Positions 3,601 through 53,925 of a DNA stretch of 64,000 nt are shown in pieces. Source of the DNA: Heterodontus francisci (lineage: Eukaryota); contig NC_090375.1 of NCBI RefSeq assembly GCF_036365525.1, positions 196,953,631 through 197,017,630 on the forward strand, in the 5' to 3' direction. The translations under genes and the position numbers were made by a program. Every line of letters begins with the position of its first letter. The stretch's first letter is position 1. The notes below the pieces were generated by a model that saw nothing but the letters and a program-made list of their open reading frames with translations, was not told the origin of the DNA and did not search any database.

Positions 3601-3745
3601 TAATGTTTCTAAAAGAATAGAATAAGCTTGCATTTCTATAGCAGCACTTTCGACCTCAGGATATCCCAAAGTGCTTCACAACTGCTCGAGAAATGTAAAT
3701 GTTTCTTTTTTTTTTCTTTCTAATTCAGCTGTTTCTCTTCCCCAG

Positions 3746-4775
3746 ATATACCACGCAGGACAAGCTTTCCGCCTGGGCCGTTACCCAATACACTGGCACC
3801 TTACGGGAGACCTGAGATATGAGTCCTACGTGCGAGGTTGTGCAATACACCAAACATTTAACAGGGCTGTGGCCATACATGGCACACACCGCCTCCTGGT
3901 GGAAGGCAATGTGGCTTATGACATCATGGGGGGAGCATTCTTCATCGAGGATGGCATTGAGCAGGGCAACGTCTTGCAGTATAACCTGGCAGTCATGGTG
4001 CGGCAGAGCACCAGCCTCCTCAATGATGACATCACCCCTGCCGCATTCTGGGTGACCAATCCGGCAAACACGGTCTGTCACAACGCTGCCGCAGGGGGGA
4101 CTCACTTTGGCTTCTGGTACCGGCTGTTCAAGCACCCCAGTGGACCCTCCCACACTCCCGGTGTCTGCCAGCGCACCGTGCCCCTGGGTGAGTTTCGCAA
4201 CAACACTGTGCACTCCCACGGCTGGTTCGGCCTGTGGATTTTCGAGGCGTACCACCCATTGAAAGGGGGACGGTGTAATTCCTGGAGCCCAGAACCTGCT
4301 CGCTTCGAGTCGCTCACCTCGTGGAACTGTAAGAAAGGGGCGGAGTGGGTGGATGGAGGAGCTCTTCAATTCCTTAACTTCCTGATGGTCAATAATGAAA
4401 ACGCCGGCATAGAAACCAAACTCATCCTGCGCTCCTACGTGAGAGGGTGGGGCGAGGCCCAGGGGGCTCTGATCGAGAACGCAACCATTGTGGGTCATGT
4501 AGAGGCACTTGGTCTCGGCGCCAACTATTGCACCACCAGAGGCATTGTATTACCCTTGGCTGAAGGGCTGACTCTATCATCTGTAACATTCATGAACTTT
4601 GACCGGCCAAGCTGCGCCGCCCTGGGGGTGACCAGCATCCAAGGTATGTGCTCAGACCGGTGCGGAGGCTGGAGCGTGAGATTCAGCGGGGTTCAGTACT
4701 TTGACGCTGCAAACAAGGCTGCCTTCCACTGGGAGCACGAGGTGGTCCTTCATGATCTCGACGGATCTCTTACAG
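3746..4775 (+). CDS. PKHD1L1: PKHD1L1 exon (1030 bp; beta-helix/PbH1 region)
   Basis: Acceptor ttctcttccccag|ATA, donor ACAG|gtgagg. Translates IYHAGQAFRLGRYPIHWH...HDLDGSLT inside ORF 3671..4828. Confidence 0.95.
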
Positions 4776-4989
4776 GTGAGGCGGACAGATTCGGGGGAGG
4801 AGGGCGGGGGGAGGGGGACAGGTGCTGATGTTGGGGCGTGACCTGGTCATAGAGTCTCTGTCCTGTTTGTATAGTGCCAGGGAGTTCCCCCAAGAATTCT
4901 GGGGTGGGGGGTGGTGGAGCTTTGGAATGACACGTTTCTACATTCACCCCCTCTATTGGTGACATTGGAAAGAGGCAGCACAGGTGGAA

Positions 4990-7581: not shown

Positions 7582-8151
7582 GTGCGTCCTATTTCTATAA
7601 CAGCATCTCCATGTGGAAATTTCTGGTCTGTTCTGTCTTGTTGCAGCCATTCTTCAAAATTACTGCAGTTGACACTGAACCACGTAAAGCGATATTAGAA
7701 CAGACGACCAAAAACTTGGTCAAAAATCTATGTTTTAAGGAGTGCCTTAAAGGAGGAGAGAGAAGTGGCAAGGCAGAGAGGTTTAGTGCAGGAATTTCAG
7801 TGCTTGCAGCCCAGGCAGCTGAAGGCACAGCCACTAATGTTGGCGAGCTCGGAGGGTTGTGGGCTGGAGGAGGTTACAGAGGCAGGGAGGGGTGAGGCCA
7901 CAGAGGGATTTCAAAAACAAGAATGAGAATTTTAGCCTGTCCTGTCCCCTATACTAGTCAACATTATTCAGCATGCTATTTAGTCCTGTTCCCTCCCAGA
8001 ACAAAGGACATGCCTTATACCTTTTAAGTCACAGTTGTTGTGTGGATTGCACGCTGGGAAATTCTGACAATTGCAAATGCTCCAGGTGTGCAGGTATAGT
8101 TGGAAGCTCTGTGCTACTTTTCCAAGGTAAACATATTCAGTTGAAACCTGA

Positions 8152-8398
8152 TGTTGCATGCTTGCTTCAAGAGTGCTGTCCCTTTAAGAATCCAGTATGC
8201 TAACTACCAGGATGCAGTCATGTTACTAGAAGCCATAGTCACTCTGCAACTGTAACACTCTATACAAAGGTTCTGTATATAGTTTGCTCTGCACTGTATA
8301 TACTAGTTTAGCTATTAATAAACCCTTTTGAGATCCAAGGAACTGTAATCCGGGTACCTCATTGTGTTGCTTAAGATAACACAAAGAATCTCATGATA
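8152..8398 (+). repeat. 5' LTR
   Basis: Starts tgttgcatg and ends ctcatgata (decayed from ...ataaca). AATAAA at 8317-8322. Manual alignment to the 3' LTR gives roughly 31 substitutions plus 2 indels. Confidence 0.92.
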
Positions 8399-8413
8399 TG
8401 GTGGCAGCGGTGG
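8399..8413 (+). promoter_or_regulatory. Primer-binding site (tRNA-Leu)
   Basis: TGGTGGCAGCGGTGG directly follows the LTR. It is the reverse complement of the vertebrate tRNA-Leu(AAG/TAG) 3' end ...CCACCGCTGCCA-CCA. Confidence 0.88.
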
Positions 8414-8559
8414 TGAAATGGCAAGCTATAACCTTGAAGACCACGGGCAAAACAGCAAACAAGTGAAGTAACTTTAAAGCAAGTACCTGAAAAGAGAATA
8501 AGTTCAAAAGAAATACTGGCCAAACAGTGGAAAGAAGAAAAAAGACTTACCCAGAGCAC

Positions 8560-9075
8560 AGAATCACAGAATTGTTACAGTGCAGAAGGAGGTCATTCGG
8601 CTCATCATGTCTGCACTGGCTCTCCGAAAGAGCAATTCCCTCAGTTCCATTCCCCCACCTTCTCCCCGTAACCCTGTACATTCTTCCTTTTCATGTAACA
8701 GTCTAATTCCCTTTTGAATGCTTCAATTGAACCTGCCTCCACCACGTTCTCAGGCAGCGCATTCCAGACCTTAACCACTCACTGCGTAAAACTATTTTTC
8801 CTCATGTTACTTTTGCTTCACTTACCAAATACTTTAAATCTGTGCCCTCTTCCTCTTGATCCTTTCATGAGTGGGAACAGTTTCTCTCTATCTCCTCTGT
8901 CCAGACCCCTCATCATTTCGAATACCTCTATCAAATCACCTCTCCGCCTTCGTTTCTCCAAGGAAAACAGTCCTAACTTCTCCAATCTATCTTCATAACT
9001 GAAATTCTTCATCCCTGGAACCATTCTCATGAATCTTTTCTGTACTCTCTCCAATGCCCTCACATCTTTCCTACA
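8560..9075 (-). mobile_element. CR1 3' fragment nested in the LTR element's leader
   Basis: ORF 8818..9078(-): KDVRALERVQKRF..SYEDRLEKLGLFSLEKRRRRGDLIEVF; the CR1 tail points left. Confidence 0.88.
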
Positions 9076-9419
9076 CACTGCAGAGTCTCCTTTGAAGCAG
9101 TCAAGTAGAAAAAAATTAAACCAGTCAAGTGTAAAGAAGATAAACGAACTCTAGCAAAAAAACAAAGGGTAAAGTCCTTGAACTGCCTATCAACCAGCTG
9201 TGTTAACATACAAGCTGAGTGTTGAAAACACTCCATCAAAACTGCTCGCTTAAAGCAAAGAGAATTTCTTCAAGGGGGAACAGAACAGAGTTGCTAGAAC
9301 AGTTTTTAAAGTATGTTTTCAACCACAAATAGAAAAATCATAATAAATAGAGTGCTGAAGACACACACAGAGCTGAACAAAGTTAAATATAGAGCAGAAT
9401 GCAAAACAACAGCAGAAAG

Positions 9420-10840
9420 ATGGATATAAAATCTCCCGGCATGATCTGGAAGGCCATTGATATCCTATATGAGTTCAAATTTTTTAAACAAAGAATGCAG
9501 TTATGCTTCACAGACCAAGCGGTTGTAGACCAGAGAAGCAGACTGTAAAAATACTGATAGCAGCTGGAAATGAGGGGTTACACAGAATCAATACCTCTGG
9601 CTTATCTGAAGAAGATCAGAAAGATCCCGCAAAGTTAAGGAAAGTGCTAGAAGATCAGCTTCGGGTAAGAGTGGATTTTAGAATTCATCGCCTGGCATTG
9701 ATGTCCTACGGGAAACAACCACAGTAATCAATAGATCAATTCATCTGTAGATGGCATAGTAATGGCAATGAATACGATTTTTCAGAAACTGAGCTGTCGG
9801 AGTGAATAATGGAGCTGGTGATTGTCTCAACACCTATTGAAGCGTTTCAAAAAGGCCTCTTGAGGAGAAAAGAAACGTTACAGCATTGCTGTGCTGCTAG
9901 AAGATGGCAGGAAATACTAAGCCATTGTAGCTGGACAACAGCATCTGCAAGCACTAGTTGCAGCCGACAGTATTGGCACGGTAACCAGGTCATAAAAAGC
10001 AAGCAAGCTGTATGCTAAATGTGATTTGTCCCACTCACCGCGAAGTTGTCCTGCATTTCCAGATCTGTGCCAGGCGAGTGCTGCAAAAGGACACTGGGAC
10101 CACCTACGCAAGAAAGCTAGTTCCAAAGTTGCAGCCAGAAATCACAATAGGACAACAAACAAACAGAAGACAGGCTCAACAACAGGCAACAGCAGCAAGG
10201 AGAGCACCAGAAACCTGTGTAAACACAAGCCGCTACACAAAGTCCACAGTGAAATAGACCTGAGACAAGACTCAGAGTGGAGTTATTTTCAGCCAGAAGA
10301 TGATCAGGCGTTTCACATTGTGAACCTGACACATTGTGTTGATGAAGTCAAACAGCTGGAAGCTTTTGTTACTATCAATATAATGTGCCCAAAGAAAGTT
10401 GGCAAACTTACACTCAGGACTAAGATTGACACAGGAGCTAGTGCAAATATCCTACCAGTCCGAGTCCTGAAGGATATGTACCGGGGTCATTGGAAATTAA
10501 TGATACAACCGACAACTGCAAAGTTAACTGCATAAAATGGGTCACCCATCCTTTGCAGTGGCATACTAACAATGCAATGCTACTATGGTAAGTCGGCATG
10601 GAAACCACAAATATTTTACCTGGTAGACACGAGTGGACCAGCAGTGGCAGGACTACCAGCATGTAAGGACCTCAACATTGTGACCATCCACGAGATCATC
10701 AAGGTACCCACTGCAGCAGAAAAGATCAAGGGTACCTTTGAGTCAGTCCAGGACTTACAATGGGTTCAATGCCATAGGAAATTTCAAAGGCAATACTGTA
10801 CTGAATGTCAGAGAGGATGCAGTCCCTGTGTCCAGCCCCT
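9420..10840 (+). pseudogene. Gypsy gag-protease (frameshifted, with stops)
   Basis: Gag-like MDIKSPGMIWK..FKFFKQRMQLCF..; knuckles CAKCDLSHSPRSCPAF..LCQASAAKGHW; protease KIDTGASANILP (10428); post-protease linker IGNFKGNTVLNVREDAVP(V)QP ends about 10840. Confidence 0.88.
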
Positions 10841-11540
10841 GAAGTCTGAAATTGAGTCACAGTTCTTCCAGCATCCCGGTGGTTCTGGTTTGGACAGTAT
10901 CAGCCCCTTCTCAGAGATGCCACAAGAGAACGAAGATCCGAATTTGGATGATGGAAGTTCTTTGTCAACAGGCAGTGTTTCTTCACACTTCCAGTAACTC
11001 ACAAGAAGAGATTGATGTTGTAACCATTGAGAATCAAAGTGGGGAGCATTGCCAAGGGGAAATCTCCAAGGACCAGAAACTGCTTGCAGACTCTGGCCAG
11101 CATCAAATGGTGCAGTCTGGAAACCCAGCAACAGAACAACTGTGCCCCACCCTCACTTCTGCTGTCCAGAGAACCGCCAGCACCAAGATCAGCCAGAACG
11201 GACAGAGGCCAAGACGTCCATGTGGCCAAGTGCTCCTCTGCCAACAAGTCCTCGACCTTGAGCCCCAGGCCTTCAGACGCAGAGAATGGGGAGAGTCGAA
11301 GGACACACAATGTCCTGAAGAGGCAGAGGAGGAATGAGTTGAAGCTTTGTCTATTGGCTGTTCGAGATGAGGTGCCGGAACTCTCCAAGTGTAGCAAGGC
11401 CGCAAAAGTGATCATCCTGAGAAAAGCAACAAGAGTATATTAGCAGGCTGGAGGCAGAGCAACAAGGACTGGATGCAGAGAGGGAGAAACTTCAGAAAAA
11501 ACAGTAACAGCTTATATGCAAATTCTCCGAGATGCAAGAG
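10840..11540 (+). pseudogene. Myc-family fragment (box IIIb, box IV, bHLH-LZ) inside the LTR element; disabled by frameshifts and a stop
   Basis: SNSQEEIDVVTIE (about 10993-11031); IKWCSLETQQQNNCAPPS..EPPAPRSAR; SPRPSDAENGESRRTHNVLKRQRRNELKLCLLAVRDEVPELSKCSKAAKVIILRKAT[+1 at ~11432]EYISRLEAEQQGLDAEREKLQKKQ*QLICKF. Paralogue not assignable by eye; 5' boundary approximate. Confidence 0.93.
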
Positions 11541-11775
11541 ACACTGCTCAAACAGATAAGGGTGAAATCCATGTCCCCAGGAGGTTATACCAGAACAAGA
11601 TCTGGAAGAATTGTCAAACCACCAAAACAAATTATTGACTCTTAGGCTTTTGCACTCGTAATTTTCACAATCCCTATCCTCGTACTTGTAAATTTTATAA
11701 CCTCTATCCCTGTCGAACTAATTTCTGTTATCCAATTTTATGTGTTTTTGCTGATAACATATGAGACTTATCTTT

Positions 11776-11789
11776 GGAAAGAAAGGGGA
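11776..11789 (+). promoter_or_regulatory. Polypurine tract
   Basis: ggaaagaaagggga lies directly before the 3' LTR start tgttg. Confidence 0.88.
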
Positions 11790-12046
11790 TGTTGTATGAT
11801 CGCTTCAAGAATGTTGTCCCTTTAAGAACTCAGTATGCTAGTGAGCTAATTACCAGGATGTAGTCTTATGACTAGAAGCCATAGTCACTCTGCAACTGTA
11901 ACACCCTACCCAATGGTTCTGTATATAGTTTGCTCTGTACTGTATATGCTAATTTGGCGGTTAATAAACCCTTCTGAGATCATCAAGGAACTGGAATCCA
12001 TATACCTCATTGTGTTGCTTAAGATAACATGAAGAATCTCATAACA
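11790..12046 (+). repeat. 3' LTR
   Basis: tgttgtatg...ctcataaca (TG...CA ends); AATAAA at 11963-11968; colinear with the 5' LTR. Confidence 0.92.
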
Positions 12047-12358
12047 AAAGGCTTTAAGTAAAAACTTTGAGGAAGTTGTTACAAAAGCACACAAAAAAAT
12101 CATTGGGTAATGATATTGAGTAATATGTGTCTTTCTATATGTTTTATTAAGTTTTAAAACCTTATCTTGGATATTATAAATTTCAGTTACTGTTTTCTTT
12201 TGCCCAAAACACAGTTCTAGTGCTTTGATAACAAACTGTGACAAGCAACTGTATACATTGGAAATCCCCATTATTTTTTTCATAGACAGGCACCATCTCA
12301 ATTGTTAAAGGAGTGATGCAACTGATTCTGTTTCTGTTTTCTGGTGTGCTTGACACAG

Positions 12359-12510
12359 GGATCAGCATCGTCCCATTCCTCGACAAACAGCTCAACCATA
12401 AACCTGGTTGGATGGCTCTTATTCCCAACAATGAGACCTTTAATTGGCATTTCGAGGATGTGGATTATATCAGCAACATCTCGTATACAGCCACATTCTA
12501 TCACTTTAAG
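12359..12510 (+). CDS. PKHD1L1: PKHD1L1 exon
   Basis: gacacag|GG...TTTAAG|gtactt. GISIVPFLDKQLNHKPGWMALIP...TATFYHFK. Confidence 0.9.
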
Positions 12511-20338: not shown

Positions 20339-20659
20339 GTAAAGTGCCATTGTGACCAGATATCTGAACTGTGTAAGAGAGGATTGAGAAGTGAGGGCTA
20401 GTTTCACCAGATGAGGAGGTTGAGGGTTAACCTGTTGGAGGTCTTCAAGGTGATGTTGAGTTACAATGAGTTAAACAATGATTGAATATTTTCACTGGTC
20501 TGTAACGAGAAGGCAGGAATTTAACATAATCACTAAAACTGAAGGGGAAGTCGGAAAAGCTCTCTTTGCACAAGGGGTGGTTAGAATGTGAATTCTGTGC
20601 CAGGAACTGTTGTTGAAGCGGATTCTGCAATAAAATGAAATTACAGTTCCTTAATAAAG

Positions 20660-23600
20660 AGGAATATTGAACAGTATGGAGAGTGAGCAGCAGAGTAAGA
20701 TTAGACTGGGTGGGATATTAAATAGTACAGGGAGTGAGCAGGAAAGTGGGATTAGACTGGGTGGGATATTAAATGTTACAGGGAGTGAGCAGGAGAGTGG
20801 GATTAGACTGGGTGGGATATTAAATGTTACAGGGAGTGAGCAGGAGAGTGGGATTAGACTGGGTGGAATATGGAAGGGTGCAGGGAGTGAGCAGGGCAAT
20901 GAGATTTGACTGGGTGGGATATTAAGGGGTGCAGGGAGTGAGCAGGGCAGTGAGATTTGACTGGGTGGGATATTAAATGTTACAGGGAGTGAGCAGGAGA
21001 GTGGGATATTAAAGGTGCAGGAAGTGAACAGAAGAGTGGGATTAGACTGGGTGGGATATTAAAGGGTACAGGGAGTGAGCAGGAGAGTGGGATATTAAAG
21101 GTGCAGGAAGTGAACAGAAGAGTGGGATTAGACTGGGTGGGATATTAAAGGGTACAGGGAGTGAGCAGGAGAGTGGGATATTAAAGGTGCAGGAAGTGAA
21201 CAGAAGAGTAGGATTAGACTGGCTGAGATATGTACAGGGAGTGAGCAGGAGAGTGGGATTAGACTGGGTGGGATATTAAATGTTACAGGGAGTGAGCAGG
21301 AAAGTGGGATTAGACTGGGTAGGATATTAAATGTTACAGGGAGTGAGCAGGAAAGTGGGATTCTGGGTGGGATATTAAATGTTACAGGGAGTGAGCAGGA
21401 AAGTGGGATTAGACTGCGTGGGATATTAAATGTTACAGGGAGTGAGCAGGAAAGTGGGATTAGACTGGGTGGGATATTAAATGTTACAGGGAGTGAGCAG
21501 GAAAGTGGGATTCTGGGTGGGATATTAAATGTTACAGGGAGTGAGCAGGAAAGTGGGATTAGACTGGGTGGGATATTAAATGTTACAGTGAGTGAGCAGG
21601 AGAGTGAGATTAGACTGGGTGGGATATTAAATGTTACAGGGAGTGAGCAGGAGAGTGGGATTAGACTGGGTGGAATATGGAAGGGTGCAGGGAGTGAGCA
21701 GGGCAGTGAGATTTGACTGGGTGGGATATTAAAGGATATGGGAAGCAAGAGGGAGAGTAGGATTAGACTGGCTGAGATATGTACAGGAGTGGGATTAGAC
21801 TGGGTGGGATATTAAATGGTACAGGGAGTGAGCAGGAGAGTGAGATTAGACTGGGTGGGATATTAAATGGTACTGGGAGTGAGCAGGAGAGTGGGATTAG
21901 ACTGGGTGGGATATTAAATGGTACAGGGAGTGAGCAGGAGTGTGGGATTAGACTGGGTGGGGTATTAAAAGGTACAGCGAGTGAGCAGGAGAGTGATATT
22001 AGACTGGGTGGGATATTAAATGGTACAGGGAGTGAGTGGGATTAGACTGGGTGGGATATTAAATGGTACAGGGAGTGAGCAGGAGTGTGGGATTAGACTG
22101 GGTGGGGTATTAAAAGGTACAGCGAGTGAGCAGGAGAGTGATATTAGACTGGGTGGGATATTAAATGGTACAGGGAGTGAGTGGGATTAGACTGGGTGGG
22201 ATATTAAATGGTACAGGGAGTGAGCAGGAGTGTGGGATTAGACTGGGTGGGATATTAAAAGGTACTGGGAGTGAGCAGGAGTGTGGGATTAGACTGGGTG
22301 GGATATTAAATGGTACTGGGAGTGAGCAGGAGAGTGGGATTAGACTGGGTGGGATATTAAAAGGTACTGGGAGTGAGCAGGAGTGTGGGATTAGACTGGG
22401 TGGGGTATTAAATGGTACTGGGAGTGAGCAGGAGAGTGAGATTAGACTGGGTGGGATATTAAATGGTACTGGGAGTGAGCAGGAGTGTGGGATTAGACTG
22501 GGTGGGATATTAAATGGTACTGGGAGTGAGCAGGAGAGTGAGATTAGACTGGGTGGGATATTAAATGGTACTGGGAGTGAGCAGGAGTGTGGGATTAGAC
22601 TGGGTGGGATATTAAATGGTACTGGGAGTGAGCAGGAGTGTGGGATTAGACTGGGTGGGATATTAAATGGTACAGGGAGTGAGCAGGAGAGTGAGATTAG
22701 ACTGGGTGGAATATTAAATGGTACTGGGAGTGAGCAGGAGAGTGGGATTAGACTGGGTGGGATATTAAATGGTACTGGGAGTGAGCAGGAGTGTGGGATT
22801 AGACTGGGTGGGATATTAAATGGTACTGGGAGTGAGCAGGAGAGTGGGATTAGACTGGGTGGGATATTAAATGGTACAGGGAGTGAGCAGGAGAGTGAGA
22901 TTAGACTGGGTGGAATATTAAATGGTACTGGGAGTGAGCAGGAGAGTGGGATTAGACTGGGTGGGATATTAAATGGTACTGGGAGTGAGCAGGAGTGTGG
23001 GATTAGACTGGGTGGGATATTAAATGGTACTGGGAGTGAGCAGGAGAGTGGGATTAGACTGGGTGGGATATTAAATGGTACTGGGAGTGAGCAGGAGAGT
23101 GGGATTAGACTGGGTGGGATATTAAATGGTACTGGGAGTGAGCAGGAGAGTGGGATTAGACTGGGTGGGATATTAAATGGTACTGGGAGTGAGCAGGAGA
23201 GTGGGATTAGACTGGGTGGGATATTAAATGGTACAGGGAGTGAGCAGGAGAGTGGGATTAGACTGGGTGGGATATTAAATGGTACAGCGAGTGAGCAGGA
23301 GAGTGGGATTAGACTGGGTGGGATATTAAATGGTACAGGGAGTGAGCAGGAGTGTGGGATTAGACTGGGTGGGATATTAAATGGTACAGCGAGTGAGCGG
23401 GAGAGTGGGATTAGACTGGGTGGGATATTAAATGGTACTGGGAGTGAGCAGGAGTGTGGGATTAGACTGGGTGGGATATTAAATGGTACAGGGAGTGAGC
23501 AGGAGAGTGGGATTAGACTGGGTGGGATATTAAATGGTACAGGGACTGAGCAGGAGTGTGGGATTAGACTGGGTGGGATATTAAATGGTACTGGGAGTGA

Positions 23601-26600
23601 GCAGGAGAGTGGGATTAGACTGGGTGGGATATTAAATGGTACAGGGAGTGAGCAGGAGTGTGGGATTAGACTGGGTGGGATATTAAATGGTACTGGGAGT
23701 GAGCAGGAGTGTGGGATTAGACTGGGTGGGATATTAAATGGTACAGGGAGTGAGTAGGAGAGTGGGATTAGACTGGGTGGGATATTAAATGGTACAGGGA
23801 CTGAGCAGGAGTGTGAGATTAGACTGGGTGGGGTATTAAATGGTACAGCGAGTGAGCAGGAGAGTGGGATTAGACTGGGTGGGATATTAAATGGTACAGG
23901 GAGTGAGCAGGAGTGTGGGATTAGACTGGGTGGGATATTAAATGGTACAGGGAGTGAGCAGGAGAGTGGGATTAGACTGGGTGGGATATTAAATGGTACA
24001 GGGACTGAGCAGGAGTGTGAGATTAGACTGGGTGGGGTATTAAATGGTACAGGGAGTGAGCAGGAGAGTGGGATTAGACTGGGTGGGATATTAAATGGTA
24101 CTGGGAGTGAGCAGGAGAGTGGGATTAGACTGGGTGGGATATTAAATGGTACTGGGAGTGAGCAGGAGAGTGGGATTAGACTGGGTGGGATATTAAATGG
24201 TACTGGGAGTGAGCAGGAGAGTGGGATTAGACTGGGTGGGATATTAAAGGGTACAGGGAGTGAGCAGGAGAGTGGGATTAGACTGGGTGGGATATTAAAT
24301 GGTACTGGGAGTGAGCAGGAGAGTGGGATTAGACTGGGTGGGATATTAAATGGTACAGGGACTGAGCAGGAGTGTGAGATTAGACTGGGTGGGGTATTAA
24401 ATGGTACTGGGAGTGAGCAGGAGAGTGGGATTAGACTGGGTGGGATATTAAATGGTACTGGGAGTGAGCAGGAGAGTGGGATTAGACTGGGTGGGATATT
24501 AAATGGTACAGGGAGTGAGCAGGAGAGTGGGATTAGACTGGGTGGGATATTAAATGGTACAGGGAATGAGCAGGAGAGTGGGATTAGACTGGGTGGGATA
24601 TTAAATGGTACAGGGAGTGAGCAGGAGTGTGGGATTAGACTGGGTGGGATATTAAATGGTACAGGGAGTGAGCAGGAGAGTGGGATTAGACTGGGTGGGA
24701 TATTAAATGGTACAGGGAGTGAGCAGGAGAGTGAGATTAGACTGGGTGGGATATTAAATGGTACAGGGAGTGAGCAGGAGAGTGGGATTAGACTGGGTGG
24801 GATATTAAATGGTACTGGGAGTGAGCAGGAGAGTGAGATTAGACTGGGTGGGATATTAAAAGGTACAGCGAGTGAGCAGGAGAGTGGGATTAGACTGGGT
24901 GGGATATTAAATGGTACAGGGAGTGAGCAGGAGAGTGGGATTAGATCTGGGTGGGATATTAAATGGTACAGGGAGTGAGCAGGAGAGTGGGATTAGATCT
25001 GGGTGGGATATTAAATGGTACAGGGAGTGAGCAGGAGAGTGGGATTAGACTGGGTGGGATATTAAATGGTACAGGGAGTGAGCAGGAGAGTGGGATTAGA
25101 CTGGGTGGGATATTAAATGGTACTGGGAGTGAGCAGGAGTGTGGGATTAGACTGGGTGGGATATTAAATGGTACAGGGAGTGAGCAGGAGTGTGGGATTA
25201 GACTGGGTGGGATATTAAATGGTACTGGGAGTGAGCAGGAGTGTGGGATTAGACTGGGTGGGATATTAAATGGTACAGGGAGTGAGCAGGAGAGTGGGAT
25301 TAGACTGGGTGGGATATTAAATGGTACAGGGAGTGAGTGGGATTAGACTGGGTGGGATATGGAAGGGTACAGGGAGTGAGCAGGAGAGTGGGATTAGACT
25401 GGGTGGGATATTAAATGGTACTGGGAGTGAGCAGGAGTGTGGGATTAGACTGGGTGGGATATTAAATGGTACAGGGAGTGAGCAGGAGTGTGGGATTAGA
25501 CTGGGTGGGATATTAAATGGTACAGGGAGTGAGCAGGAGTGTGGGATTAGACTGGGTGGGATATTAAATGGTACTGGGAGTGAGCAGGAGTGTGGGATTA
25601 GACTGGGTGGGATATTAAATGGTACAGGGAGTGAGCAGGAGAGTGGGATTAGACTGGGTGGGATATGGAAGGGTACAGGGAGTGAGCAGGAGAGTGGGAT
25701 TAGACTGGGTGGGATATGGAAGGGTACAGGGAGTGAGCAGGAGAGTGGGATTAGACTGGGTGGGATATGGAAGGGTACAGGGAGTGAGCAGGAGAGTGGG
25801 ATTAGACAGGTTGGAATATGGAAGGGTACAGGGAATGAATAGGAGAGTGGGATTGGATTGGGTGGGATATTAAATGGTACAGGGAGTGAGCAGGAGAGTG
25901 GGATTAGACTGGGTGGGATATTAAATGGTACAGGGAATGAGCAGGAGAGTGGGATTAGACTGGGTGGGATATTAAAGGTTCAGGGAGTGAGCGGGAGTGT
26001 GAGATTAGACTGGGTGGGATATTAATGGTACTGGGATGTGAGCAGGAGTGTGGGATTAGACTGGGTGGGATATGGAAGGGTACAGGGAGTGAATAGGAGA
26101 GTGGGATTGGATTGGGTGGGATATTAAAGGTTCAGGGAGTGAGCAGGAGAGTGGGATTAGACTGGGTGGGATATTAAATGGTACTGGGAGTGAGCAGGAG
26201 TGTGGGATTAGACTGGGTGGGATATGGAAGGGTACAGGGAGTGAATAGGAGAGTGGGATTGGATTGGGTGGATATTAAAGGTTCAGGGAGTGAGCAGGAG
26301 AGTGAGATTAGACTGGGTGGGATATTAAATGGTACAGGGAGTGAGCAGGAGAGTGAGATTAGACTGGGTGGGATATTAAATGGTACAGGGAGTGAGCAGG
26401 AGAGTGAGATTAGACTGGGTGGGATATTAAAGGTTCAGGGAGTGAGCAGGAGAGTGAGATTAGACTGGGTGGGATATTAAATGGTACAGGGAGTGAGCAG
26501 GAGAGTGGGATTAGACTGGGTGGGATATTAAATGGTACAGGGAGTGGGCAGGAGAGTGAGATTAGACTGGGTGGGATATTAAATGGTACAGGGAGTGAGC

Positions 26601-27720
26601 AGGAGAGTGGGATTAGACTGGGTGGGATATGGAAGGGTACAGGGAGTGAATAGGAGAGTGGGATTGGATTGGGTGGGATATTAAAGGTTCAGGGAGTGAG
26701 CAGGAGAGTGAGATTAGACTGGGTGGGATATTAAATGGTACAGGGAGTGGGCAGGAGAGTGAGATTAGACTGGGTGGGATATTAAATGGTACTGGGAGTG
26801 AGCAGGAGTGTGGGATTAGACTGGGTGGGATATTAAATGGTACTGGGAGTGAGCAGGAGAGTGAGATTAGACTGGGTGGGATATTAAATGGTACTGGGAG
26901 TGAGCAGGAGAGTGGGATTAGACTGGGTGGGATATTAAATTGTACTGGGAGTGAGCAGGAGAGTGGGATTAGACTGGGTGGGATATTAAATGGTACTGGG
27001 AGTGAGCAGGAGAGTGGGATTAGACTGGGTGGGATATTAAATGGTACTGGGAGTGAGCAGGAGAGTGGGATTAGACTGGGTGGGATATTAAATGGTACTG
27101 GGAGTGAGCAGGAGAGTGGGATTAGACTGGGTGGGATATTAAATGGTACTGGGAGTGAGCAGGAGAGTGGGATTAGACTGGGTGGGATATTAAATGGTAC
27201 TGGGAGTGAGCAGGAGTGTGGGATTAGACTGGGTGGGATATGGAAGGGTACAGGGAGTGAGCAGGAGAGTGGGATTAGACAGGTTGGAATATGGAAGGGT
27301 ACAGGGAGTGAATAGGAGAGTGGGATTGGACTGGGTGGGATATTAAATGGTACAGGGACTGAGCAGGAGTGTGGGATTAGACTGGGTGGGATATTAAAGG
27401 TTCAGGGAATGAGCAGGAAAGTGGGATTTGACTGGGTTGAATATGAATGGGTATTGGGAGTGAGCAGGAAAGTGGGATTAGACTAGGTGGGATATTAAAG
27501 GGTATTGAGAGTGAGCAGGAGAGTGGGATTAGACAGGTTGGAATATGGAAGGGTACAGGGAGTGAGCAGGAGAGTGGGATTAGACAGGTTGGAATATGGA
27601 AGGGTACAGGGAGTGAATAGGAGAGTGGGATTGGACTGGTGGAATATGAAAGGGTGCAGGTGAGTGGGATTAGACTGGGTTGTATATGAAAGGGTGCAGG
27701 GAGTGAGCAGGAGAGTATGG
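20660..27720. repeat. ~7 kb tandem array of a 51-bp unit (~135-140 copies)
   Basis: Consensus gattagactgggtgggatattaaatggtacagggagtgagcaggagagtgg; gives the spurious 17-aa repeat SGIRLGGILNGTGSEQE. Confidence 0.97.
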
Positions 27721-27853
27721 TTGGACTGAAGCCTGTGATTGCTCCTTTCTCCTCTCTCACTGTGCTTGCCCCCCAGTCCCTGGGTCGGGGCTGGTATCGA
27801 GCGGCCTATGTTTGACCTCACCTGTAATACTGTCGGTGTTTTTTTTTTTGCAG

Positions 27854-27983
27854 GGAGGGAGGCTGATTGCAGGCACACAGGAGAAACCGTTCCAAGGGGA
27901 GCTGCAAATTGTTTTGAGGGGAGACCATTCGACTCCAGACTGGCCTTTACCAAACGGACCGAATCAAGGGTCAAAGGTGTTGG
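27854..27983 (+). CDS. PKHD1L1: PKHD1L1 exon
   Basis: poly-T tgcag|GGA...TTGG|gtgagt. GGRLIAGTQEKPFQGELQIVLRGDHSTPDWPLPNGPNQGSKVL. Confidence 0.92.
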
Positions 27984-28708
27984 GTGAGTCACTGCAGGTG
28001 GCCTATACAGATTCCTTTTTGATTAATTGTTAAAAGAAACTTTTGAACTTGTGCAGGTTCTGAAGCAAGAAAACAGAGGAATTAATCCTTCCCAATTCAC
28101 TCATTTTTAGAACGCTGTTGTATCTGCTCTTTGCCTTTTCTGCTTCAGTGGATAAGGCTGCAGCCTCTGAGGCCACTGTTCCCCATCCCTGACCTTCACT
28201 TTATGATTCGGATCACTTTGATACAAAGGATTGATGATGAGATGGTAGCGTCACAGATCTGGTATTAGACCCCACTTTGACAGATATAAAACCAACAGAG
28301 TGGAGTAGGGACATAGGAGGAGGCCATTCAGCCCCTCATGCTATATCACCATTCAACTAGATCCTAGTTGATCTGTACCTCAAATCCATTTTCCCGCTTT
28401 TTCTCCATATCCCTCGCAACCCTTACCCAACAAAAATCTATCGATCTCCGTTTGAAAGCTCTAATTGAACCTTCCCGACATCCTAAGCCTTTTGGGGGTG
28501 GCATTTTTAAATTTCCAACATCCTTCTGCGAGACAAAGTGCTTCCTAATTTCACTCCTTGTCCCACTGCACTTTTGGTGTAAATGTATATTTTAGATGCT
28601 GTATTTAGAGCTGTTTTTGAGTTTGTCAGTTGATTCTGAAGCAGTTGCCCAGTTTTATTTCTCGTGTCAGGGACTGCCATGTCTGTGTTTTTCCTCCTCG
28701 TGCTGCAG

Positions 28709-43635: not shown

Positions 43636-44654
43636 GTAAGGACCAGTTTCAAACAAAGGACGAATGCAAGTGTGGTTTCTCCGAGTAGAATCATAGAACA
43701 GTACAGCACAGAAGGAGGCCATTCAGTCCATTGAATCAGCATTGGTTCTTTTGAAGGCGTTAGTCTCACTCCCCTGCTCTGTCGCCCATATCCCTGCAAT
43801 TTCTTCCCCTGCAAATATTTATCCAATTCCCTTTTGAAAGTTACTATTGAATCTGTGTCCATCAACAACATCAAGCAGTACATTCCAGATTCGAACCACT
43901 CGTTGCATAAAAGGTTTACTTCATGTCCCCTCTGGTTCTTTTGCCAATCACCTTAAAGCTATGCCCTCTAGTTATCAACTCTTCAGCCATTGGAAATGTT
44001 TCTTTCCCCACCTTTCTCTCCTCTTCCACCCCCTTTAAAATTGGACCATTTAGCTTGTGTTGTCTTCCCTAATCCTTCCTATCAAAATGTATCACCTCAC
44101 ACTTTCCTGAGTTGAATTTTATTTGCCATGTGTCTGTTCAGTCCATCAACCTGTCTATGCCCCCTTGAAGGTTATTACTGCCCTCCTCAGTGTTTGCTCC
44201 ACTGCCAAGTTCGTGTCATCTGCAGATTTCAAAACTGTGCCCTGTCCCCCCATGTCTAAGTCAGTAATGTATACCAAAAACATCAGTAGTCCTTCGAGAA
44301 CACCACTATAAACCTCCCTCCAGTCCTGTTTTCTATCCCTTAATGTATCCCTATTGCTACTGTCCCGACTGTCCATTGCTAATGAGAGGGAAGCAGAGAA
44401 GAAAATGGATGACAGATATAATGGACTGGATGCAGTTGACTTATGCAGAATGTGTAAAGGCCAGCACAGGACAGACAGAGGTGGAGATCCGTGACAGTCA
44501 ACCTTCAGGGAAGAAGATGAAACCAATGAACAAACAAACTGTCCATATCCGATGGGGTTTCAATTTTGCCTAATATGTTGTACTTTATCAAATTCCTGTA
44601 CTGCCTTCATCCCCCCTCTCTGTTACCTCATCAAAAAACTTAAATCAAGTTTTT

Positions 44655-47600
44655 AGAACATTACAGCGCAGTACGGGCCCTTCGGCCCTCGATGTTGCGC
44701 CGACCTGTGAAACCATCTGACCATTTTCATCCATATGTCTATCCAATGACCACTTAAATGCCCTTAAAGTTGGCGAGTCTACTACTGTTGCAGGCAGGGC
44801 GTTCCACGCCCCTACTACTCTTTGAGTAACGAAACTACCTCTGACATCTGTCCTATATCTATCACCCCTCAACCTAAAGCTATGTCCCCTCGTGTTTGCC
44901 ATCACCATCCGAGGAAAAAGACTCTCACTATCCACCCTATCTAACCCTCTGATTATCTTATATGTCTCTATTAAGTCACCTCTCCTCCTCCTTCTCTCCA
45001 ACGAAAACAACCTCAAGTCCCTCAGCCTTTCCTCGTAAGACCTTCCCTCCATACCAGGCAACATCCTAGTAAATCTCCTCTGCACCCTTTCCAAAGCTTC
45101 CACATCCTTCCTATCATGCGGTGACCAGAACTGCACGCAATACTCCAGGTGCGGCCGCACCAGAGTTTTGTACAGCTGCAGCATGACCTCGTGGCTCCGA
45201 AACTCGATCCCCCTACTAATAAAAGCTAACACACCATATGCCTTCTTAACAGCCCTATTAACCTGGGTGGCAACTTTCAGGGATTTATGTACCTGGACAC
45301 CAAGATCTCTCTGTTCATCTACACTACCAAGAATCTTCCCATTAGCCCAGTACTCTGCATTCCTGTTACTCCTTCCAAAGTGAATCACCTCACACTTTTC
45401 CGCATTAAACTCCATTTGCCATCTCTCAGCCCATCTCTGCAGCCTATCTATGTCCCTCTGTAACCTACAACATCCTTCGGCACTATCCACAACTCCACCG
45501 ACCTTCGTGTCATCCGCAAATTTACTAACCCACCCTTCTACACCCTCATCCAGGTCATTTATAAAAATGACAAACAGCAGTTGTCCCAAAACAGATCCTT
45601 GCGGTACACCACTAGTAACTAAACTCCAGGATGAACATTTGCCATCAACCACCACCCTCTGTCTTCTTTCAGCTAGCCAATTTCTGATCCAAAGCACTAA
45701 ATCACCTTCAATCCCATACTTCCGTATTTTCTGCAATAGCCTTACTGAAATCCATATACACCACATCCACGGCTTTACCCTCATCTACCTGTTTGGTCAC
45801 CTTCTCGAAAAACTCAATAAGGTTTGTGAGGCACGACCTACCCTTCACAAAACCGTGCTGACTATCGCTAATGAACTTATTCTTTTCAAGATGATTATAA
45901 ATCTATCTCTTATAACCTTTTCCAACATTTTACCCACAACCGAAGTAAGGCTCACAGGTCTATAATTACCAGGGCTGTCTCTACTCCCCTTCTTGAACAA
46001 GGGGGCAACATTTGCTATCCTCCAGTCTTCCGGCACTGATCAAGGACAAAGGCTCTGCAATCTCCTCCCTGGCTTCCCAGAGAATCCTAGGATAAATCCC
46101 ATCTGGCCCAGGGGACTTATCTATTTTCACACTTTCCAAAATTGCTAACACCTCCTCCTTGTGAACCTCAATCCCATCTAGCCTAGTAGTCTGTATCTCA
46201 GTATTCTCCTCGACAACATTTTCTTTCTCTACTGTAAATACTGACGCAAAATATTCATTTAACGCTTCCTCTATCTCCTCTGATTCCACACACAACTTCC
46301 CACTGCTATCCTTGATTGGCTCTAATCTAACTCTAGTCATTCTTTTATTCCTGATATACCTATAGAAAGCCTTAGGGTTTTCCCTGATCCTATCCGCCAA
46401 TGACTTCTCGTGTCCTCTCCTCGCTCTTCTAAGCTCTCCCTTTAGATCATTCCTGTCTAGCTTGTAACTCTCAAGTGCCCTAACTGAGCCTTCACGTCTC
46501 ATCCTAACATAAGCTGCCTTCTTCCTCTTGACAAGCGCTTCAACTTCTTTAGTAAACCACGGCTCCCTCGCTCGACAACTTCCTCCCTGCCTGACAGGTA
46601 CATACTTATCAAGGACACGCAGTAGCTGCTCCTTGAATAAGCTCCACATTTCGATTGTGCCCATCCCCTGCAGTTTCCTTCCCCATCCTACGCATCCTAA
46701 ATCTTGCCTAATCGCATCATAATTTCCTTTCCCTCAGCTATAATTCTTGCCCTGCGGTATATACCTGTCCCTGCCCATCGCTAATGTAAACCTAACCGAA
46801 TTGTGATCACAAAGTGCTCACCTACATCTAAATCTAACACCTGGCCGGGTTCATTACCCAGTACCAAATCCAATGCGGCATCGCCCCTGGTTGGCCTGTC
46901 TACATACTGTGTCAGAAAACCCTCCTGCACACACTGGACAAAAACTGACCCATCTAAAGTACTCGAACTATAGTATTTCTAGTCAATATTTGGAAAGTTA
47001 AAGTCCCCCATAACAACTACCCTGTTACTCTCGCCCCTGTCGAGAATTATCTTCGCTATCTTTTCCTCTACATCTCTGGAACTATTCGGAGGTCTATAGA
47101 ATACTCCCAACAGGGTGACCTCTCCTCTCCTGTTTCTAACCTCGGCCCATACTACCTCAGTAGACGAGTCCTCAAATGTCCTTTCTGCCGCCGTAATACC
47201 CTCCTTGATTAACAATGCCACACCCCCCCCTCTTTTACCATCATCTCTGTTCTTACTGAAACATCTAAATCCCGGAACCTGCAACATCCATTCCTGTCCC
47301 TGCTCCACCCATGTCTCCGAAATTGCCACAACATCGAGATCCCAGGTACCAACCCATGCTGCAAGCTCACCCACCTTATTCCGGATGCTCCTGGCGTTGA
47401 AGTAGACACACTTTAAACCAAGTTCTTGCTTGCCAGTGCCCTCTTGCATCCTTGTAACCTTATCCCTGACCTCACTACTCTCAACATCCTGTACACTGGA
47501 ACTACAATTTAGGTTCCCATCCCCCTGCTGAATTAGTTTAAACCCCCCCGAAGAGCACTAGCAAATCTCCCCCCCAGGATATTGGTACCCCTCTGGTTCA

Positions 47601-48709
47601 GGTGAAGACCATCCTGTTTGTAGAGGTCCCACCTACCCCAGAAAGAGCCCCAATTATCCAGGAAACCAAAACCCTCCCTCCTACACCATCCCTGCAGCCA
47701 CGTGTTCAACTCCTCTCTCTCCCTATTCCTCGCTTCGCTAGCACGTGGCACGGGCAACAACCCAGAGATAACAACTCTGTTTGTTCTTGCTCTAAGCTTC
47801 CACCCTAGCTCCCTGAATTTCTGCCTTAAATCCCCATCTCTCTTCCTACCTATGTCCTTGGTGCCTATGTGGACCACGACTTGGGGCTGCTCCCCCTCCC
47901 CCTTAAGGATCCCAAAAACACGATCCGAGACATCACGAACCCTGGCACCTGGGAGGCAACACGCCAACCGTGAGTCTGTCTCGTTCCCACAGAACCTCCT
48001 ATCTGTTCCCCTAACTATGGAGTCCCCAATGACTAATGCTCTGCTCCTCTTCCCCCTTCCCTTCTGAGCAACAGGGACAGATTCTGTGCCAGAGACCTGT
48101 ACCCCATTGCTTACCCCTGGTAAGTCGTCCCCCCCAACAGTATCCAAAACGGTATACCTGTTGTTGAGGGAAACGGCCACAGGGGATCCCTGCACTGCCT
48201 GCTGGTTCCCTCTCCTTCCCCTGACGGTAACCCATCTACCTACTTCTTTTACCTGAGGTGTGACTACCTCCCTATAACTCCTCTCAATAACACCCTCCGT
48301 CTCCCGAATGATCCGAAGTTCATCCAGCTCCAGCTCCCTAACGCAGTTCTGGAGGAGCTGGAGTTGGGTGCACTTCCCGCAGATGCAGTCAGCAGGGACA
48401 CTCTTGGCGACCCTTACCTCCCACATTCTGCAGGAGGAACATTCAACTGCCTTAACTTCCATTCCCACTATTCTAAATTCCCAACAAATCTACTGAAAAC
48501 CAAAAAAAAAAAGTAAAAACTTGTTAGCTTAGCAATCCGACGGACTGAACTTTTTTTTTGGTTAGAGGAGGAGGATGGGTGGGAGACAGCACGCGAGTAG
48601 TGTTTTAGGTAAAGCAACCGCCCAAATATGTAACCTCACTTACCCAGCAGTCCCGCGTGCGCTCCGCCTATACACGAGAAATGGCTTCCGATTTCTTGGC
48701 GCGCTTTTC
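44655..48709 (-). mobile_element. Near full-length, relatively young CR1 LINE
   Basis: 5' UTR at about 48470-48709 (cut by the gap), ORF1, ORF2 in long open segments (47449-46979 endonuclease; 46664-45981; 45784-44645 RT with FADDTK), 3' tail at about 44655. Confidence 0.95.
47533..48468 (-). CDS. CR1 ORF1p (N-terminal Cys motif, coiled coil, SGNH/GDSL esterase domain), 311 aa, open
   Basis: CSSCRMWE...CGKC, LVIGDSIVR, CLPGARVRDV, HIGTKD, DGLHLN. Confidence 0.9.
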   Translation of the reverse strand: MGMEVKAVECSSCRMWEVRVAKSVPADCICGKCTQLQLLQNCVRELELDELRIIRETEGVIERSYREVVTPQVKEVGRWVTVRGRRGNQQAVQGSPVAVSLNNRYTVLDTVGGDDLPGVSNGVQVSGTESVPVAQKGRGKRSRALVIGDSIVRGTDRRFCGNETDSRLACCLPGARVRDVSDRVFGILKGEGEQPQVVVHIGTKDIGRKRDGDLRQKFRELGWKLRARTNRVVISGLLPVPRASEARNREREELNTWLQGWCRREGFGFLDNWGSFWGRWDLYKQDGLHLNQRGTNILGGRFASALRGGLN

Positions 48710-48858
48710 NNNNNNNNNNNNNNNNNNNNNNNNNNNNNNNNNNNNNNNNNNNNNNNNNNNNNNNNNNNNNNNNNNNNNNNNNNNNNNNNNNNNNNNNNNN
48801 NNNNNNNNNNNNNNNNNNNNNNNNNNNNNNNNNNNNNNNNNNNNNNNNNNNNNNNNNN
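48710..48858. other. Assembly gap (149 N)
   Basis: Run of n. Confidence 1.
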
Positions 48859-52769: not shown

Positions 52770-53925
52770 GGCCCAGTGTCGAGCCCTCTCACCTCTGATT
52801 TGCAAGGTTGTGGGTTCCAGTCGCACTCCAGAGGCCTGAGCACAAAGTCCAGGCTGACATTACAGCCCAGCACTGAGGGAGTGCTGTACTGTCAGAGGGG
52901 CAGTACTGAGGGAGTGCTGCACTTTCAGAGGGGCAGTACTGAGGGAGTGCTGCACTTTCAGAGGGGCAGTACTGAGGGAGTGCTGTACTGTCAGAGGGGC
53001 AGTACTGAGGGAGTGCTGTACTGTCAGAGGGGCAGTACTGAGGGAGTGCTGTACTGTCAGAGGGGCAGTACTGAGGGAGTGCTGTACTGTCAGAGGGGCA
53101 GTACTGAGGGAGTGCTGTACTGTCAGAGGGGCAGTACTGAGGGAGTGCTGTACTGTCAGAGGGGCAGTACTGAGGGAGTTCTGTACTGTCAGAGGGGCAG
53201 TACTGAGGGAGTGCTGTACTGTCAGAGGGGCAGTACTGAGGGAGTGCTGCACTGTCAGAGGGGCAGTACTGAGGGAGTGCTGCACTGTCAGAGGGGCAGT
53301 ACTGAGGGAGTGCTGCACTGTCAGAGGGGCAGTACTGAGGGACTGCTACACTGTTAGAGGGTCAGTACTGAGGGAGTGCTGTACTGTCAGGATCAGTACT
53401 GAGGAAGTGCTGTGCTGTCAGAGGGGCAGTCCTGAGGGAGTGCTGTACTGTCGAAGGGTCAGTACTGAGAGAGGGCTGCACTGTCGGAGGGTCAGCACTG
53501 AGGGAGTGCTACACTGTCGGAGGGTCAGTACTGAGGGAGTGCTGCACTGTCGGAGGGTCAGTACTGAGGGAGCGTTGCACTGTCGGAGGGGCAGTACTGA
53601 GGGAGCCCTGCACTGTCATGGGTCAGTACTGAGGGAGTGTTGCACTGTTGGAGGTGAGACAGTAAATCGAGGCCCTGTCTGGCCTCTCAGGTGGGAATTA
53701 AATTTCCCCGATGTCCTGGCCAATGTTTAGCCCTCAACCACCATCACTAAAAGATAGATGATCTGGCCCATTGCTGTCTGTGGGATCTTGCTGTGCACAA
53801 TTGGCTACTGAGTTTCCTACATTACAACAGTGACTACATTTCAAAAATACTTAATTGGCTTTGAAGCGCTTTGGGATGTTGAGGGGCTGTGAAAGGCACT
53901 ATAAAAATGCTACTGTTTGTTTCTT
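52770..53925 (+). repeat. DeuSINE-like element with an internal 33-bp tandem expansion (~23 copies, 52870-53650)
   Basis: tRNA-like head (ggttgtgggttccagtcgcactcca), then unit gtactgagggagtgctgtactgtcagaggggca, then Deu-like gagacagtaaatcgaggccctgtctgg and the SINE tail. Confidence 0.8.

Follow-up and report, generated by a model that had tools for sequence, protein, structure and literature searches.

A decayed Gypsy-type retrotransposon copy of Heterodontus francisci carrying a partial mych sequence in place of its pol core

A Myc-like basic-HLH-zipper sequence that reads into the end of a Gypsy pol frame raises the question of how such a sequence came to lie inside a retrotransposon, and whether the fusion itself, or rather another part of the element, is the informative feature. 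The locus lies in a stretch of 64,000 nucleotides of Heterodontus francisci, here called the window, and all coordinates are given within it. The window copy was compared with intact Gypsy relatives, with the mych proteins of sharks, with other annotated copies in the same species, and with contigs from sequencing runs under three organism labels.

A two-LTR element with mych in place of its pol core

Region 8152-12046 is a decayed two-LTR Gypsy element, in which gag and protease are kept and the reverse transcriptase (RT), RNase H and integrase are replaced by a piece of mych. Its features are as follows.

8152..8398, + strand: 5' LTR, the terminal dinucleotide at its 3' end decayed
8399..8413, + strand: PBS-like sequence, beginning with TGG directly behind the 5' LTR
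8560..9097 (approximate), - strand: later repeat insertion in the leader, SINE- or LINE-end-like, with matches elsewhere in the window
9420..10330, + strand: decayed gag with a zinc-knuckle remnant, placed by tblastn of the intact relative P0034 and by profile positions 2-435
10331..10700 (approximate), + strand: aspartic protease region with a DTGA motif and one stop
10701..10830, + strand: pol linker preceding the reverse transcriptase (profile positions 445-471), ending in DAVPV (10816-10830), the 5' switch region
10816..11525, + strand: captured mych coding sequence, host residues ~121-358 of 366, with four frame changes and one stop
11318..11320, + strand: basic-region position that is Glu in 8/8 shark mych proteins and in human MYC, and Lys in 7/7 copies
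11526..11645, + strand: 3' switch region (11526 to ~11543) and last Gypsy pol codons, with the TRSGR motif and a stop
11774..11789, + strand: polypurine tract before the 3' LTR, recognized from its sequence
11790..12046, + strand: 3' LTR, with TG...CA ends

The LTRs, PBS and polypurine tract of Ty3/Gypsy retrotransposons are all present in this element, and the PBS-like sequence is presumably of the tRNA-Leu type. The two LTRs are identical in 216 of 247 aligned columns (K2P 0.14). The flanks of the LTR pair differ and bear no target-site duplication (8147-8151 versus 12047-12051); the window copy may be a recombinant, or its flanks may have been altered. Since no target-site duplication ties the two LTRs together, their divergence was rejected as a clock.

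The extent of the loss in pol was established by comparison with intact relatives. P0034, an intact relative with a single ORF, was aligned by tblastn to 9429-10727 with 39-47% identity, and farther on it carries RT, RNase H and integrase, in the order protease-RT-RNase H-integrase, whereas the window copy has none of these three. A profile of 12 full-length relatives matched the window at positions 2-471 of 1344 and then at the last residues only, from which it follows that the pol core is gone and not merely interrupted. The relatives are single-ORF Gypsy polyproteins, the named ones coming from a shark, sea urchins and a bivalve, and the element may be Mag-like, as its PBS, knuckle and end motif suggest. 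From the start of gag to the end, the window copy has 7 frame changes and 6 stops, and is therefore dead. Viral and metagenome collections contained no relative and no match to an LTR pattern, and neither Rfam matches nor tRNA genes were found.

The best Myc match of the captured piece was the mych of Heterodontus francisci itself, with 74% identity. The piece contains the EEEIDVV box, the QHNY box, the nuclear signal and the basic-HLH-zipper, of which the basic-HLH part matched HLH at E 1e-6 and human MYC at E 1e-13. The boxes of the host protein at residues 42 and 100, presumably the first two Myc boxes, precede the join at residue 121 and are absent from the captured piece. With the first 120 residues missing, the captured Mych is predicted to lack the activation domain; an activation role of the Myc N-terminus is described in the accessible text of PMC7358075. 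Host residues 181-195 span 38 bases in the window, without an intron-sized gap. Myc genes carry an intron at the matching place, and the captured source was likely a partial mRNA, the putative intron loss being judged from the general position in myc genes. In P0026, the mych protein of Scyliorhinus torazame, the sequence preceding the basic region is internally repeated.

The surrounding DNA was also annotated. A large exon-like frame at 3626-4825 (+) contains a CEMIP beta-helix domain (E 5e-56) and matches cell surface hyaluronidase; the likeness is presumably to fibrocystin-L (PKHD1L1). The element follows downstream on the same strand and probably sits within an intron, and 12360-12510 looks like a further exon. 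A long G-rich tandem array with a 51-base unit and strong GC skew occupies 20540-28000, with more than 120 copies in register. A LINE remnant at 44648-48489 (-) retains RT (E 9e-14) together with an ORF1 of the GDSL esterase type (E 2e-12), as in CR1/L2-like elements, and another endonuclease remnant lies at 116-727. One run of N (149 bases) is at 48710-48858, and a repetitive open frame with pentapeptide-repeat matches, probably a minisatellite, is found at 52858-53727 (+).

Sister copies, the 5' join and the zipper-to-tail frame

Six of the 22 matches in the Myc search were extra 'myc-like' or 'N-myc-like' gene models of Heterodontus francisci; they are spread over at least five long sequences, none of them the one that bears mych. 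The N-termini of their proteins are Gypsy protease or linker, and at least six gene models so named in this species are element copies, not paralogs. Being gene models, these sister proteins are biased towards open frames. Contigs matching 10450-11800 (1,351 bases, 80% likeness) numbered 12,145 in run X1, 378 in X5, 519 in X6 and 276 in X8, where X1 (a DNA run) and X5 represent one sample, X6 and X8 represent two other organism labels, and contig counts do not equal copy number. Among the matches listed, up to 125 contigs lay over single positions, with coverage capped at 128, and chimeric contigs were also present in runs guessed to be RNA. No run listed as containing the sequence was labelled RNA, and the best DNA runs belong to one study, which may be the source of the window. 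The contig numbers point to many copies, and with the sister proteins at other loci they mark an amplified, non-autonomous family.

In a tree built on the longest unbroken stretch (132 columns), the seven copies formed one group (82/88, drawn open), whose stem was short and whose tips were long. They change the columns that are invariant in the host about as often as the variable ones (13-26% versus 15-31%), which, together with the long tips, argues for neutral decay after insertion, and all copies seen are decayed. The tree leaves undecided which shark mych is the sister of the copies, although the identities favour that of Heterodontus francisci (74-83% versus 60-74%).

The join on the 5' side was found to be shared. 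The window copy and the sister proteins P0006, P0008 and P0010 go from the pre-RT linker into mych at one shared word, a DAVPV-type join; the host mych has this word at residue 121, the Gypsy relatives have DAxP just before RT, and P0092 of Heterodontus francisci continues into RT at the same word. This likeness was measured at the protein level, as a shared word. Five of the six sisters are in frame from protease or linker into Myc, and three of those share the join of the window, whereas P0004 is not in frame on this side. P0007 and P0009 carry further 5' deletions with the frame kept. The deletion of P0009 recurs in X1, X5 and X6, where contigs join 10693 to 11044, and X8 has a loose end that agrees with it. 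By phase arithmetic this joint is in frame. The resulting deletion subfamily (window 10675-11044), in which the protease end is joined directly to Myc in frame and the EEEIDVV box is removed, occurs under the three organism labels as well as in P0009. The initial annotation had proposed a capture within coding sequence, a proposal whose support is stronger on the 5' side than for the 3' join that it had named.

On the 3' side, the frame described in that annotation was recovered from the window. The basic-HLH frame ends at 11431, and the frame 11433-11642 differs from it by one base, in agreement with the frame change placed at about 11432; it reads from zipper into tail as had been written, with an internal stop at 11505-11507 and the terminal stop at 11643-11645. 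It had been suggested that sister copies might be free of both breaks, and all six annotated sister proteins indeed read through the places of the frame change and the stop, so that these two are private decay of the window copy. At 11431, 23 contigs of X1 showed a one-base length difference and 31 had a loose end. The annotated absence of poly-A between zipper and tail was likewise confirmed, the sole A run being six A in zipper codons at 11496.

The use of an RSGR-type motif as a mark of Gypsy pol ends was upheld by profile and position. The pattern [TS]RxGR occurs within the last 30 residues of 11 of the 17 Gag-protease relatives of at least 950 aa (drawn from 151 relatives), whereas the remaining 20,531 residues of these 17 are free of it. 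When 13 such pol ends were made into a profile, its best match in the whole window fell at 11592-11627. The tail scored 20.2 bits with this profile; of 1000 shuffles, 913 obtained a score, and none of these exceeded 8.3. The motif expression alone matches 11 places in the six frames of the window, and the weight therefore rests with the profile score and with the position. What had been called an integrase C-terminal tail is made up of the last ~39 codons of the pol frame; these follow the part that encodes the integrase domains, all of which are missing here. The open frame alone is weak evidence, as 5.5% of base shuffles of 70 codons have one stop or none. Nothing significant was found in PDB and Pfam for the zipper alone or the tail alone, and the junction peptide, sought among longer proteins, was present in 0 of 48 candidates.

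Origin of the family

The element of the window is a decayed copy of a Gypsy family lacking RT and integrase, most of its pol having given way to the rear two thirds of mych. This piece was likely gained through two template switches onto the mych mRNA, and the family was likely spread by a helper. In the proposed course of events, mych mRNA would have been co-packaged with the element, and during reverse transcription a first switch would have used the short likeness between the pre-RT linker and mych, keeping the frame. A second switch, 2-8 codons before the mych stop, would have led into the last pol codons. From the founder, a Gag-protease-truncated-Mych polyprotein would be predicted; copies would then have been spread by an intact helper element and, once inserted, would have decayed neutrally. 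The two LTRs, the kept gag and protease, the absence of the pol core, the Myc without its first 120 residues and the same joins in sisters are observed. The host piece is flanked by both LTRs, the internal ORF is replaced and not interrupted, and the cargo is partial, as in an LTR-mediated retrocopy. Secondary spread is seen in the shared switch points, P0006, P0008 and P0010 having the 5' join in common with the window and P0010 also the 3' join.

The place of the second switch and the meaning of the tail can be weighed together. Directly behind 11525, with eight residues of the host protein still to come, the copies depart from the host sequence, although M, Q and T keep the host register as far as 11543; a 3' switch 2-8 codons before the mych stop is suggested by this protein alignment. 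If the switch had instead occurred within the first bases of the 3' UTR, shortly behind the mych stop, and the stop had mutated, the register of M, Q and T with the host end over six codons after 11525 would be explained; nonetheless, six copies (the window and five sisters) already differ from the host at the residue that follows KF, and in five of these the replacing residue is the same, and shared departures elsewhere amount to only 9 in 226 columns, making this breakpoint very improbable. A different suggestion is that selection acted on the fusion of zipper and pol tail as such, and that the fused protein depended on the tail and its TRSGR motif. The fusion is in frame in the window, P0010 follows the tail frame of the window for its first 15 residues before leaving it, P0004 ends at the pol stop, and 81 contigs of X1 cover 11581, so that the long tail is not private to the window copy; at 11645, 54 contigs of X1 differ, yet keep a stop. 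However, chance alone would put one junction in three in frame, the tail of P0007 and P0009 is in a different frame, a deletion in P0004 has taken away the motif, and P0006 and P0008 end too early to show a tail frame. With the four informative sisters ending in three ways and none of the six sister proteins carrying zipper and motif together, the fusion as a conserved product of the family was not borne out, and its selection is unlikely. The depth of run X5 falls after 11553, which is too coarse to place the 3' breakpoint. Overall, the frame of the short tail appears free to change, and its in-frame state in the window was probably inherited from the founder and not selected. The in-frame tail is the least informative part of the element; more weight attaches to the myc cargo in many copies, to the 5' joins that keep the frame and to the changes in the basic region.

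A LINE-made retrocopy of mych, or genomic mych DNA, could also have entered an element that later lost pol and poly-A by deletion. The family does delete internally, as the joints in contigs indicate, and LINE remnants are common in the window. Such deletions, however, would have had to stop in frame at the shared word at one end of the insert and a short way before the mych stop at its other end, and neither a poly-A nor an intron-sized gap is present, so that this route has hardly any probability in our judgement. Capture within the coding sequence by way of an LTR element, which the initial annotation favoured over LINE retrocopying, is supported by the two LTRs, the replaced pol, the partial mRNA and the lack of poly-A.

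Basic-region changes and relation to known systems

Changes shared by the copies were sought in 226 columns, 137 of which are invariant in the eight shark mych proteins. A non-host residue was shared by at least four of the six sisters in nine columns, three of them host-invariant: 213 (4/6), 286 (4/6) and 290 (6/6 and the window). The His-Glu-Arg trio, which we take to make the base contacts of Myc, has its histidine at host residue 286, and the four sisters in which this histidine is changed include all three short-tailed ones. Host residue 290 is the glutamate of the ERQR motif. In bHLH proteins, according to the accessible part of PMC4914114, this glutamate reads the E-box, and the available text of PMC7922891 gives TWIST2 p.Glu75Lys as a dominant disease allele. 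By motif equivalence the substitution at the ERQR glutamate is identical in the two cases; in TWIST2 it is a disease allele in an expressed gene, whereas here it is fixed in retroelement copies. That two of the three shared changes fall on the His-Glu-Arg trio has a p of 0.001, or 0.03 if the target is the 14-column basic region, both values being calculated after the fact from six biased gene models with changes shared by descent. The basic-region changes may therefore serve as a lead, and are no proof of selection. Because two of the three shared changes at host-invariant sites hit DNA-reading residues, and do so in a large old family, it becomes testable whether selection shapes a captured piece of a proto-oncogene during its mobile life or whether the piece merely travels along.

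The shark myc family fits the known capture of mRNA by LTR elements. In the accessible text of Tan et al. 2016 (PMC5131818), an element ORF is replaced, microsimilarity is reported at 25 of 29 Drosophila junctions, and secondary spread is described. In those retrocopies and in maize Bs1, as far as that text describes them, a partial mRNA likewise replaces part of the element ORF between LTRs, with shared words at the join, shared switch points and renewed spread as non-autonomous elements. Compared with maize Bs1, for which the same text gives 1-5 copies, the shark family seems far larger, is old and occurs under three organism labels. It differs from the retrocopies of Tan et al. in that the cargo is a myc-family gene and the likeness at the 5' join is read at the protein level. 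In the literature covered, with subscription journals, repeat databases and the supplements of Tan et al. outside its scope, no report was found of myc capture in an LTR retrotransposon or in a shark, nor of this shark family. A LINE-made processed pseudogene would have a complete 3' end with poly-A, which is absent here.

Capture of Myc is a textbook case for transforming retroviruses. The avian acute leukaemia virus MC29, as described in the accessible portion of PMC13431497, likewise has a replication-defective, helper-dependent genome with a gag-myc fusion, and a gag-myc layout as in MC29-type viruses is present in the sister copies. The shark family nevertheless belongs to the Ty3/Gypsy retrotransposon lineage, with no env seen, with germline copies, with the protease kept and with the paralog mych as cargo; the activation domain is absent, the basic region is changed, all copies seen are decayed, and transforming activity is not expected. 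By its different lineage, missing activation domain and altered basic region, it is not a member of the MC29-type retroviruses. It is conceivable, although we regard it as rather doubtful, that the family parallels MC29 as a retrotransposon of the germline, and that its cargo was disarmed to allow spread. Master copies would then have translated Gag-protease-Mych, from which the protease would have released a Myc without activation domain, and lineages losing DNA-reading residues (the Glu in all copies, the His in a later short-tailed subfamily) would have been amplified; the reason might be toxicity of E-box binding, or a benefit to the element from a DNA-blind Myc that sequesters Max.
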